Below, one piece after another: positions 44,701 through 53,700 of a stretch of 64,000 nucleotides of DNA. A program made the translations under genes and the position numbers. The notes beneath the pieces are model-generated. The model ran no database searches and was not told where the DNA came from. It saw nothing but the letters and a program-made list of their open reading frames with translations. The DNA comes from Macrostomum lignano. Taxonomy: Eukaryota. Each line of letters starts with the position of its first letter. Position 1 is the first letter of the stretch. The stretch spans positions 186,001-250,000 of the forward strand of contig NIVC01001363.1 in the NCBI GenBank assembly GCA_002269645.1, in the 5' to 3' direction.

Positions 44701-47700
44701 TTGGCGCAGGGATCCCCATTGTTAATTTGGAAGCTTCCGATTGGTCCGAACTACAGATACCGGCCGGCAAGAAGTCAAGAGGACAAAGGAGATAACGGAC
44801 CAGATCAACTGTTACCAGGCGCCTAAACTTCCTGAAGGACAGGAAAGTTACTGATCGCGATACTACGGACGAGGATTATTACGAGAGCTCTCATTTAAGG
44901 ACTCAAAGGTAATTGAATACCTTCATTTGATTACTGGGTTGCCTAGCTACAGAGCTAGAAGTGATTGTTCCTTGATTACAGTTGAGGACTGGTAATAAGG
45001 AACACATCAATTGGTGATCTCGCCCTCTCGGCACTACTCAAACTTTTGAGCAATAGCCTGGCCAAGCTATTGTAAAGTGACGAAAGAGCGACTTCATTAA
45101 TTTTGCGCGCACGTGTTAGAGGTAACACTTTTCGACACTTTTCGATTTTTGTACGATTTGAAACTCGAGTAAAAGTTTAGATATACAGGCTTGAGTACCT
45201 GTCAATTTTGAGTAACGTTTGAGCACGCGTGTTAAATTTTTGTTTTTAACGAGCTCGAGCAAGAGTAAACCTTAAACAAAACCGAAAACAACGTCCGGTA
45301 CACTGAAAACAAACCGAAAAATAATCAATACACACTAAAACAAAACCGAAATTAAAAACACTTGACGAAAGCTAAAACAAACCGAAATTTGATAAAACGT
45401 GACAAGGCACGTCACGAAGACAAGAAAGGCCTTTGAAAAAAGCAAGAAGCAGCTGCACTTCAAGCACTTTAAAGATACACTTTGCGGGACGCCGCATAAG
45501 TGCGAAAATCAGCCAGCGAATAAGAGGTCAGAAAAAGCAGCCAAAAGCCGAATTCCGTCAAGGTCAGACATAACAAATTGAGGTGTCAAAAGCGCCGCGA
45601 GACAATCAGTTACAACCGAAGTTTATTTCGAAAGAAACACCACACTGGAAGATCCATTACAAATCGACCCAGACCTAGAGCTACCGTTCTATCCCATCAA
45701 CAACATGGCGCGGCGCAATCCAACGGTGCACAGAGATATCAAAGAGACAGTTGGCACCTTTTCTATGGAAAAAGACTTTAACACCTTTGTTGATCATTTT
45801 GACCTGGTATGTAGGGAATACAACCTACAAAATCCAGAAAAAGCGCAACTGTTGCCACCACTCCTCCAAGGCACTGCACGAGAGATTTATGGTAAACTAG
45901 ATGCGGCAACACAGCAAAACTACCCAGCATTAATCATTCAACTGCGCGCGCATTTCAACCGCTGTGGCACAAACAGATCAGTGCTACTGCACAAGTTGCA
46001 TAACAGAAGGATGCAGCCAACCGAATCCTTCCTGACCTTTGTGGACGACATCCGTCAGATAATTAAGGCACTGCATCAGCCAACACTGCCAGCTGCAGAC
46101 CAACCACCTCTGGGTGCGGCAGAATTAGCCGCTAGAGAGCGACAGCGATTGATGGATCGCGAACAAAATCTGATTCTGCACGTAATAAACAATGCACAGC
46201 CGTCACTCCGAGATAGACTTCTACGCGAAAACATTGAAACCGAGGAAGACCTTTTACGGTGCGGAATGCAGTGGGAAGCAAGCGCTCCACTAATGACAAC
46301 CGGCAACACAGAAGTGCAGAAACTGACACAGCAACTAAACAAACTGATGCAACATCAAACAGCCGTTATCGCCGAACAAAAAAGACGAAATGAACGAGCC
46401 CAAGCCAGATGCTATTACTGTGGACGAGAAGGACACTACCAAATAATTGTCCTCATCGGTCAACAAGAAATGATATGCCGCGACAGCCATTCAACAGACG
46501 GAAGCCGCAAAAACCATGGCAACACATCAAAATTGGCAGCAGCAAAACACGAAACGCTTCGGAAACAATGGCTACAGACCGCGAAACACCAGATACATGC
46601 CCAAGCAACCAACGCAAGCGATGCAACGATATGCAAACGCCATCACGTACACACCGGAAAGCGAACAGCAAGAGCAGCAAGTCTTCACGATAGACGACTT
46701 AGAAATGGACTTCACTATCAATGAAATCGACTGGCTCGATGTGGAGAGCAGCGAAAAGACAAAAAACATCAGCATGGTCGAAATGAAAGAAACTAACATT
46801 GACAGCGAAGAAGAAAAGACAGAAGTGAGCACAGAAAAAACATTGCAAGCGACATCAGTGAAAGAAAAGAAGAAACAAACAAAGGCAACGACAAAGAACT
46901 GGCAACGAAGGATGACAACGAAAGAAGCAACGACGGAAATGCAGAGATGGAAGAAGAACAGCAAGAAGAAAGCAGCGATCACGATTATGAGATGCACAAT
47001 GACGCTGATGACAACCGAGCCGCCGACAAAGAACATGAAGACGGAAGGCACAAAGGAATGGAAGAAAGAAATCTAAGCTCCGACAGCGATCAATGCTACG
47101 AGATCCGCTATAAACGAAATGGTGAAGCCTACATTCAAACGGTCGACTACAAGGCCGAAGTGAGGTACCGCAGACAATGGAGTGACACAACTACAACATC
47201 GGAAGAAAGCAAGGAAGAAAATGATGAAGACGACAAGCAGCGGAACGAATCGGATGCCTTGCGCTCGGAAACGCCAATGGAACAAGAGGAAGAATACGAT
47301 GCGGACGCAGAAGATAACGAATGGCAGCCGCAGCCAATGCCAGCAAAGACAACGGCAACGTTCAGAAAATGGCGATTCTGGATATTCTGGATCATCATAA
47401 TACTACTGACGGCAGTAGTCACCAAAGCAACAGCAATGGAGAAACCAATGATATGTCCAACGGATGCGCATATCCAACCGATGATCTACAAGATACCAAC
47501 CGACATCAAATGCAGCTACTTCAAGACAAATCAGACGAAGCCAAAGAAGATCACAATTGATCTCTACAAAGCTAACATCAAGAAGCATCGACAACTCGGA
47601 ATAGTGTGCTTTAGAGACAAGCACCTAGTGGAAAAAGTTTGGCGAGGACAATGGAACAGAATTCGATTTTGGCAACACGAACTACATGTGTCGCACGCTG

Positions 47701-50700: not shown

Positions 50701-53700
50701 CAAGTCTACGAGTACAACCGATCGCCAATGGGACTCAGCAACAGCCCAGCAACAATGAGCCGACTAACGGCATACATGCTTGCAGGATGCACAAACCTGC
50801 TGCACTATGTCGACGACATCTTGGCCTACGGAGAAGACTTCCAACGACTCTATGAAGCTACGGAGAAGGCCCTAGCGCTCATTCAACGCCAAGGTCTTAA
50901 GCTGCAACCGACGAAATGCAAATTCTTCCGAGACAACGTACGTTACCTAGGACACCAAGTGACAGCCAAAGGAATCTCACCGGACCCAGACAACGTGGAG
51001 AAAGTAAAAAAGTTTCCTACGCCAACTAGCATAACAAAGGTCCAATCGTTTCTTGGACTAGCGCAATACTTCCGAAAGTTCTTACCGAACTTCGCGAAGA
51101 CAGCAAAACCGCTGTACGACCTGCTCAAGTTCGACAAGTGGAAACAAGAAAACTGGACGCAAAAGCAGCAAGAGAGTTTCGACGAAATCAAACGACAACT
51201 GACATCAGACGCACTACTACAGCATCCGGACTTCGACAAACCCTTCATAGTCGAGACGGACGCCTCAGGAACGGGACTCGGAGCAGTCCTACTACAGGAA
51301 ACCGAGGACAAGAAGGAGCGACCTATCGCCTACGTCAGTCGAGCACTCAAACCAAATGAAACAAAGTGGTCAGCTACGGAACGCGAGCTACTAGGAGTCT
51401 TGTTCGCCCTACGACAGTTCCATTACTACATCTATGGTTCTCCAATACCGACGATAGTACGCACAGATCACGCACCGCTGACCTACGTCGTAACTACAAA
51501 AGGACAAACAAACAACCGACTCATCAGGATGACACTCAAGATCCAGGACTACAACTACAAGCTCGTCTACAAACCAGGAATTACTAACAAGGCCGCGGAC
51601 GCCCTGTCAAGAGCCTACGAAGTCAACGCCATTCATCCAATCCCTAACATCAAGGAATTGGTGGATGAGACTGAACACGACAACTTCTACATAGCAGTTA
51701 AAAACAACGACAAGGACGTCAAGCTCAGCCCCGTGGAACGAAAATTCCTGCGCAAGCAGCGACAACATTTAACAATCAACAAGTCACGACTCTACTGGAT
51801 GAGTGACAACAAACCTAAAATCTACATGCCATATTCGTTTAGGCAGGCAATTCTCAACGAGCTGCACGACAACCCACTCGCTGGACACCTGTCGGCAGCC
51901 AAAACCATTGCAAGAGTGGAGCAATACTACTTTTGGCCAAGCATGCATGGCGACATCAAGCAGTATTGCAACAACTGCCACTCATGCGCAGCATCGAAGA
52001 CAGGACGACGACAAAAACCACAGCTACAATCGATACCAAAGTCAACAACTATGGACTGTCTCAGCATCGACATCACCGGACCGCTGCCACCGAGCTGTCT
52101 CCATGGCATAGCCTACACCTACATCCTAACAGCCTTGGACATTTTCTCAAAGTTTGCTATTGCCATACCAATACCGGACATCACAGCTCAGACAGTGGCA
52201 ATGGGTTTCTTCAACGACATCATCTGCAAGTACGGTACGCCAAAGAACCTCACATCGGACAATGGATCGCAGTTTACGTCTCAACTCTTTCAGCAAGTGG
52301 TGAAGATCCTCAACATCACGCAGATCTACACATCGACCTACAATCCGAAGGCGAACATGGTTGAAAGGTTTCACCGCAACCTACACGAGATGATTACACA
52401 CTTCGCGCATCAACAACCGGACGACTGGATCATCTATCTGCAAGCAGTAACAATGGCCTACAACAGCGCTATTCATCGATCAACGGACAATACGCCATTC
52501 TTTCTAATGTTTGGGCGAGACTTCCAGCCGCCAAACCTATTGGCGCAGCAACTACTACCATCGCAATATGTGGAAGTCCCGACGTCCATTCAAAAGTTCG
52601 TCACGCAACTACACCTCGCATGGAAAGTAGCCAAGCACAACATCGACAATCAGGTGGCTCTAACCACCGGCACCGACACGAGATCGACAACTCTGACAGC
52701 CGGCGACATCGTCTACCTGCACTATCCGCCGCAACAGACGCACAAACACGCACAGAAGTACAAAGGACCATATCGAGTGGTCCAACTAACGTCACCGACA
52801 ACGGCACGCCTGGCCAATGTGCAAGATCCTCATCAGCACCAATTCTACGTGCACATTCATCGACTAAAGAAGATCAACACTGACACGACAACATTTTTAC
52901 CGTCACTAGGCAACGCTGATCGCACGCGTTCAGCGAACCGCCACATCGCAACAAAACACGAGGAGACACAAGCATCAACCGAGAATCAGCAACATGGCTA
53001 CAATCTGCGACCTCGTTAAGTTGCGAAAACAACCCGTGTAGAGACCGGGTCAGAATAGCTCTACAGCTTCGCAAGCTTGTCGTAAGAGGCGACTAATCTG
53101 AGCGACTTCAAACTTCAAGCGACGACGACAATGGGCAACGCACTGTCCAAACAGGCGCCCCAACTACAGCAACTCTACGAATGCCCAATATGTTTAACTG
53201 ATGACTTGGCTGTCAAGCCAACAATTATTTGTGAAAACAGACATCGCATATGCGGACAATATTTAAGCGACTCACATTATATTCAGCTCTGGCAGAATTG
53301 CCCGATAGGTAGAAGTAGTTTGCGGCAGTGCGCCTATTGTTAGTCTTGGCGCACATGTCAATACTGTAACCAAAAACATTTTATTTGCATGCGTATACTT
53401 ACCTTTAAATAACTTTTATAACCAACGCTCTTAACTACCCATTACTAAATACCTGTAACACTTGTGACAAATGATTATTATAAAGACATGCTTGAACTTT
53501 TTATGCGTTTCAATCCTCTATTTAAAACTCGGGACGAGTTTTTTGTAAACATGGGAGATTTTGTAGAGTGTTCTACCTCCCGTAAGAAGACATAAAAGTG
53601 TTAATGTACTACTCACACATTTTATTTAGTAGTAAATTGAAGAGCATGAATAAAGGTATGCTTTGAACTATAAGTATATTCGGACTAACCAATAGGAAGA

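Follow-up and report, generated by a model that had tools for sequence, protein, structure and literature searches.

Canonical errantiviruses such as Drosophila gypsy and ZAM, and the Retroviridae, carry the envelope gene as a separate open reading frame (ORF) 3' of pol and encode an F-type or class I envelope protein. Here we describe a Ty3/gypsy element of the flatworm Macrostomum lignano, located at positions 43934-54637 of a 64,000-nt stretch of contig NIVC01001363.1 (hereafter the window). It is like those elements in being a long terminal repeat (LTR) element with gag, pol and envelope for which cell-to-cell spread is proposed, but its env lies 5' of pol, in frame with it, and is of class III, while RING-finger ORFs fill the slot 3' of pol. 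Such a layout is already in print: according to Chary and Hayashi (eLife 2026, PMC13524379), envelopes of the herpesvirus glycoprotein B (gB) type occur as GAG-ENV-POL in Nematoda, Bryozoa and Platyhelminthes, in several clades, and for nematode elements the same paper cites Sacco et al. 2022 on the reversed order, env before pol. The window element is a member of this published kind, with which it shares the gene order with env between gag and pol, the gB-type env and the multi-copy state. The original prediction had taken an env 3' of pol as the established arrangement, which holds for canonical errantiviruses and fails for the GAG-ENV-POL elements of the three phyla named above; the novelty that it implied for the layout falls with it.

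The table of PMC13524379 lists a Macrostomum element, Mlig_errantivirus_2, with 16 copies and an LTR of about 864 nt. This element has the same 12-nt primer site as the window element and the LTR length of the sibling locus L014, but the LTR of the window subfamily measures 1,076 nt, and the likeness is one of primer site and LTR length between unaligned sequences. The window element probably belongs to a listed family; the sequence of Mlig_errantivirus_2 was not among the 30 of 58 Platyhelminthes occurrences examined in the available part of supplement 2. The words 'polyprotein', 'fused', 'single ORF', 'late domain', 'ESCRT', 'cytoplasmic' and 'RING' do not occur in the accessible main text of PMC13524379, and the accessible portion of PMC12801592 makes no mention of env, glycoprotein or RING. 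Cer1 differs from the window element in that its extra ORF lies 3' of pol (PMC10309623). No description of a 'gag-env-pro-pol' frame was found in the literature searched, outside which most subscription journals lay. The nematode endogenous retroviruses (NERV) of Sacco and co-workers reportedly have a continuous gag-env-pro-pol frame, a nyamivirus-like glycoprotein and extra small ORFs. The window family would share with them the continuous frame, present in its siblings, and differs in its host, a flatworm and not a nematode, the 97-99% matches of the window being labelled Macrostomum lignano.

With the gene order known, the open matter is how gB-type elements move between cells (PMC13524379). 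We consider it likely that the window element represents an active Macrostomum Ty3/gypsy family expressed as one polyprotein, which would be threaded through the membrane, packaged into enveloped particles that bud through the endosomal sorting complex required for transport (ESCRT), and delivered by class III fusion.

A single Gag-Env-Pol frame in sibling copies

The element is a young, recently inserted Ty3/gypsy copy. It has the hallmarks of the group (TG...CA LTRs, target-site duplication, primer-binding site and polypurine tract; a Gag with a CCHC knuckle; the pol order protease, reverse transcriptase, RNase H, then integrase (PR-RT-RH-IN) with a GPY-type integrase end), and its two LTRs show 2 mismatches and 0 gaps over the 1,059 nt compared, in agreement with the recent activity read from their near-identity in the original prediction. 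The LTRs of sibling L006 are identical. One uninterrupted ORF of the window, 48703-53019 (1,438 aa from stop to stop), holds the C-terminal part of the ectodomain, the transmembrane (TM) helix and PR-RT-RH-IN. The other parts that had been predicted were all located in the window as well, namely the Gag ATG (45705), the CCHC knuckle (starting at 46410; Pfam zf-CCHC E 0.027 on the frameshift-broken Gag piece), the hydrophobic segment ending in A-x-A, six sequons and RRRR.

The prediction that the upstream pieces join into one frame of about 2,440 aa was borne out by other copies of the element. A DNA search of the window's genome returned 19 long matches, one of them a locus cut by a contig end, and in seven of the 19 (L006, L008, L011, L013, L014, L017 and L018) a single frame runs unbroken, with no stop between Gag/Env and Pol, through CCHC, hydrophobic segment, ectodomain, TM, PR, RT, RH and IN. 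These frames span 2,480-2,489 codons inside the extracted locus; five of the seven are clipped at the 5' locus edge, and the full open frames reach 2,535-2,538 codons. Counted from its first Met, the polyprotein of one sibling measures 2,439 aa; the overall range is about 2,440-2,500 aa. When the ectodomain was used in a protein search, 11 of the 80 matches listed had open frames of at least 2,460 codons, two of these belonging to a family that is only 64% identical. Several near-identical copies with open frames thus exist, as in the gB-type GAG-ENV-POL errantiviruses; identical copies on different contigs may be assembly duplicates, and the M. lignano assembly is described as redundant (PMC12801592).

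Alignment to a sibling with an intact frame puts five frameshifting gaps in the window copy, near 46446, 46524, 46846, 47900 and 48729. The proposal that one A is missing at each of five A-runs is therefore right in the number of breaks and wrong in their setting, only one gap falling within a homopolymer of at least five (gap placement is approximate). Other broken copies have 3-8 frameshifting gaps each, some of them recurrent at short runs. At the break sites, one-base indels set the window apart from contigs of four runs, which come from four studies (all five sites for X15 and X17, four of the five for X1 and X5), and this makes consensus error in a multi-copy repeat a likelier cause of the breaks than old decay.

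The same order was found beyond this family, in line with the suggestion to look for it in other invertebrates: CCHC, ectodomain and RT follow one another in one protein in seven distant entries, P0007 (a second Macrostomum family), P0020, P0033, P0052, P0053, P0054 (a Globodera entry) and P0071. A profile search for longer relatives gave 2 proteins only. An RT-RH tree was built with FastTree from 127 of the 132 stretches that had an RT hit, after removal of duplicates and short matches and without curated references or outgroup. It joins the Macrostomum proteins in one group (support 93), apart from the clade that includes the Globodera and Panagrolaimus proteins (99), and the deep branches are unresolved, so that a single origin is possible. 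The nearest RT-RH relatives are 34-44% identical and include entries named 412- and 297-like. Two further gypsy-type single proteins, P0177 and P0085, have a glycoprotein region after pol, in frame, and P0177 carries Pfam PF00974.

The single frame may nevertheless not be the main expression route: RNAs that are spliced or begin internally, or a frameshift that escaped recognition, could supply Gag, Env and Pol apart from one another or at unequal levels. Capsids need an excess of Gag, the linker between Gag and the signal-like segment is long and variable, and the linkers of L006 and L008 contain a slippery-type heptamer. However, this heptamer is absent from L011, L013 and L014, and none is conserved among the siblings; the length changes of the linker are whole codons in all cases, which keeps the frame; and the contigs of the four runs show no coding-region joint, although contigs cannot prove absence. 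We regard such a mode of expression as unlikely.

The envelope ectodomain and its cytoplasmic tail

For the fold analyses we took the ectodomain (574 aa) from P0005, a natural sibling with an intact frame. On its own this sequence matched Pfam Monjiviricetes_fusion with an E of 1.6e-5, which at 23.5 bits is below the cut-off of 27, and a protein search with it recovered 53 relatives (E of 0.001 or better). When 41 sequences (P0005, four siblings and 36 of the 53 relatives) were combined into a profile, all of the 50 PDB sequences listed were herpesvirus gB, with a best E of 8e-15; among the profile's members 24 match Monjiviricetes_fusion and three Glycoprotein_B. An AlphaFold model of the ectodomain, of moderate quality (pLDDT 72, pTM 0.47, TM-score 0.40-0.45 to gB), shows, following the RRRR loop, a central helix of 47 residues, and its best Foldseek match is gB of KSHV (E 5e-21, 639 columns, TM-score 0.45). 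The top viral fold match is a nyavirus glycoprotein (E 1e-24), followed by proteins of other negative-strand RNA viruses and of entomopoxviruses. By its predicted fold the ectodomain is a class III fusogen, and the likeness that had been noticed from motif spacing is upheld. The RRRR site reads RQRR in sibling L013. As in the published gB-type errantiviruses, the ectodomain is flanked by a signal/TM and a TM segment, and the relatives also carry a matching hydrophobic segment before it.

We then compared substitution rates in six pairs among five unbroken copies (L006, L008, L011, L013 and L014). The ratio of nonsynonymous to synonymous rates (dN/dS) was 0.05-0.10 in the N-terminal and 0.03-0.08 in the C-terminal part of the ectodomain; the Env range of 0.03-0.10 is close to that of Pol (0.01-0.08; RT-RH alone, 0.01-0.03), and the linker gave 0.32-0.49. 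Since the ectodomain values are this low, Env is, as judged from these comparisons, under purifying selection and maintained rather than carried as passive cargo. Between L006 and L008, dS is 0.61 in the N-terminal ectodomain and 0.04 in its C-terminal part, and such patchy synonymous divergence suggests that subfamilies may have recombined.

These results bear on the view that the ectodomain does not work as a fusogen, being a host or passenger sequence, or that its fusion to pol is the accident of one decayed copy. The window copy is indeed in pieces, and one of the database entries that carry this sequence, P0002, is a chimeric gene model. Against it stand the unbroken siblings, the gB fold, the dN/dS of at most 0.10 and the recurrence of the layout in distant relatives. 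Such an origin is extremely improbable, and we rule it out on the unbroken sibling frames together with the PDB profile and Foldseek matches to gB.

Late domains of the YPxI, PTAP and PPxY types bind ALIX, TSG101 and Nedd4-type ligases, and in retroviruses they lie in Gag. In the window element motifs of these types are found instead on the Env tail: the 90 residues between TM and protease contain LYPSI, PTAP and PPNY within 20 residues, and nowhere else in the polyprotein (2,480 residues) does a PTAP or a PPxY occur. When the tail was shuffled 200,000 times, 5 shuffles contained all three types at once, for motifs chosen after being seen. Sibling L013 keeps the motifs at 80% identity in TM and tail (dS 1.3); the 64% identical family keeps PTAP and YPKI in reversed order and has no PPxY, and P0007 has PSAP and LYPTL. 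In related proteins at least one motif was present in 12 of 31 tails, with a shuffle mean of 2.2 and no shuffle of 10,000 reaching that count; without the two other Macrostomum families the figures are 10 of 29 and 2.0. These counts treat related proteins as independent, with no kinship correction. As controls, 28 of 1,072 windows of env-less polyproteins contained a motif (29.6 in their own shuffles; 7% in the most proline-rich class), as did one of 19 pre-signal linkers. The enrichment on the Env tails of distant relatives is sequence evidence for ESCRT budding and suggests that these elements may bud by this route. From it and from the purifying selection on Env, we infer that an infectious, enveloped element becomes more probable.

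A candidate assembly pathway

Two hydrophobic segments flank the ectodomain (hydropathy 2.19 for the signal-like segment, 47361-47435), and their basic residues lie where the cytosol would be expected, so that hydropathy and charge fit the predicted topology in which Gag and Pol would be cytosolic and the ectodomain lumenal. A single frame with two membrane crossings provides a concrete assembly model. Gag would fold in the cytosol, and the internal signal would thread the ectodomain into the endoplasmic reticulum (ER). Signal peptidase would then cut after A-x-A, and the signal would leave Gag tied to the membrane; the second helix would stop transfer, and Pol would remain cytosolic, hanging on the Env tail. 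Furin would nick the ectodomain, the YPxI, PTAP and PPxY motifs of the tail would recruit ESCRT for budding, and the element's protease would free capsid, PR, RT and IN. Finally, the class III trimer would fuse the particle with another cell. In flavi-, toga- and rubivirus polyproteins, capsid, internal signal and glycoprotein likewise lie in one frame; the likeness is one of design, an analogy without homology.

The same polyprotein could also serve a purely intracellular replication, with Env acting as a scaffold, in budding into the ER or endosomes or in fusion of neighbouring cells, and with no free infectious particle. The layout tethers both Gag and Pol to the membrane, and late-domain motifs also act in budding into endosomes. 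Moreover, Env-mediated transmission is unknown for most such elements (PMC13524379). On the other hand, a whole gB-type ectodomain with a furin-like site and sequons, under purifying selection, is more what one expects of a functional fusogen than of a simple anchor, and we hold the intracellular alternative to be rather unlikely.

A number of points weigh against our preferred reading, that of an infectious element made from one polyprotein. Synthesis of Gag, Env and Pol at 1:1:1 is awkward for capsid assembly, and neither a conserved slippery site nor, in the contigs of the four runs, a coding-region joint was found that would give extra Gag. Several of the distant one-protein entries are gene models, which might hide stops or introns. 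The contigs cannot be assigned to the window insertion, so its breaks may be real mutations. To the Pfam match below cut-off and the moderate model must be added that 19 of the 31 tails are free of motifs, that 24 further proteins, in which no TM or tail could be delimited, were left out of that count, and that a count with misplaced TM helices had given 1 of 8, the figure of 12 of 31 coming from the redone placement.

More broadly, Gag-Env-Pol elements might be enveloped retroelements with an assembly logic of their own: in a single membrane-threaded polyprotein the Env signal would anchor Gag and the Env tail would carry Pol, the ESCRT late domains would have moved from Gag to that tail and, in the present family, a separately encoded myristoylated RING protein would act as matrix or ubiquitin ligase. 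We advance this tentatively, its chances being somewhat short of even. The family being young, multi-copy and resident in a transgenic model flatworm, the model is testable on native particles.

Accessory genes, element features and surroundings

On the 3' side of pol the family carries one RING-finger gene or two, and the first begins with a myristoylation-like MG motif. In L008, L009, L014 and L016-L019 the accessory ORF encodes 222 aa with two RING-like fingers (Pfam zf-RING_2 E 1.7e-4, below cut-off), whereas in the window's subfamily it is shortened to 70 aa with a decayed RING finger. The full-length protein is not needed in cis, because this subfamily transposed recently with the short form. 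L008 and L014 have a second such ORF inside the element, and the two accessory ORFs of L014 are paralogues (24%, E 2e-12); a second ORF after pol is seen at L014:8384-8950 and also in L025. The accessory protein has 151 matches in the genome, and an Atlas search placed it near RING-domain clusters at 0.91 or lower, below the recognition threshold and a lead only. Arenavirus Z is a small myristoylated RING protein; the comparison is an analogy only, and the full accessory protein of the window family has two fingers. Neither RING/myristoylation accessory ORFs nor Env-tail late domains were found for gypsy elements in the literature searched, and these are the two features of the family that we did not find in print. 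The RING genes may be a new class of retroelement accessory gene.

Table 1. Parts of the Macrostomum element, in window coordinates
Feature	Position	Strand	Basis or remark
4-bp target-site duplication	left copy 43930..43933; right copy 54638-54641	+ (left copy)	junction sequences
5' LTR, 1,076 nt, TG...CA	43934..45009	+	LTR-LTR comparison
tRNA primer-binding site	45012..45023	+	sequence; 12-mer equal to that of the Mlig_errantivirus_2 row, PMC13524379 supplement 1
Gag with one CCHC knuckle	45705..46470	+	broken by frameshift in window copy, whole in siblings
Polar/acidic linker	46471..47360	+	fast-evolving; in frame in unbroken siblings; two frameshifts in window copy
Putative internal signal/anchor: basic residues, hydrophobic core, A-x-A end	47361..47435	+	hydropathy; predicted cleavage
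Class III (gB-type) fusogen ectodomain, by predicted fold	47436..49167	+	six sequons; two frameshifts in window copy
RRRR furin-like site	48365..48376	+	low-confidence loop before central helix
Env TM helix	49168..49236	+	hydropathy 2.43
Late-domain-type motifs LYPSI (49381), PTAP (49405), PPNY (49426)	49381..49437	+	cytoplasmic tail; putative function
Aspartic protease	49516..49785	+	Pfam
Reverse transcriptase and RNase H	50482..51552	+	Pfam RVT_1 E 7e-28, RT_RNaseH E 2e-34
Integrase (H2C2, core, GPY), ends at stop codon	51829..53019	+	Pfam and sequence
Accessory ORF, MGNxxS start, decayed RING finger, 70 aa	53131..53343	+	sibling comparison
Short polypurine tract and spacer, adjoining 3' LTR	53547..53561	+	sequence
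3' LTR	53562..54637	+	LTR-LTR comparison

The subfamilies have LTRs of 1,076, 971 and 864 nt, which differ in their 5' parts (window 53562-54637 compared with L021 and L023); the window LTR matches that of L006 only from position 200 and that of L014 only from the TATA-like box. Some copies stand in tandem and share an LTR (L008; L025/L026), and several are clustered on single contigs (G000 contigs C2121, C1130 and C87). The window copy lies within a tandem repeat rich in purines, which extends beyond it on either side (43150-43933 and 54638-54760).

A search of Rfam gave no match at E up to 0.1, and no tRNA genes were found in the 64-kb window. At 5159-7285 (+) lies a 708-codon open frame with a protein kinase domain and RCC1 repeats, which we take to be NEK8/NEK9-like, and 2222-2983 (-) is part of a Prp19-like WD40 gene. 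Two other frames, 33538-35247 (+; 569 codons) and 29931-30620 (-; 229 codons), had no Pfam match at E 0.001. The window also contains an N gap of about 1 kb at about 40770-41840, and tandem arrays of 24-nt and 16-nt units at 54969-56636 and 57170-58735, respectively.

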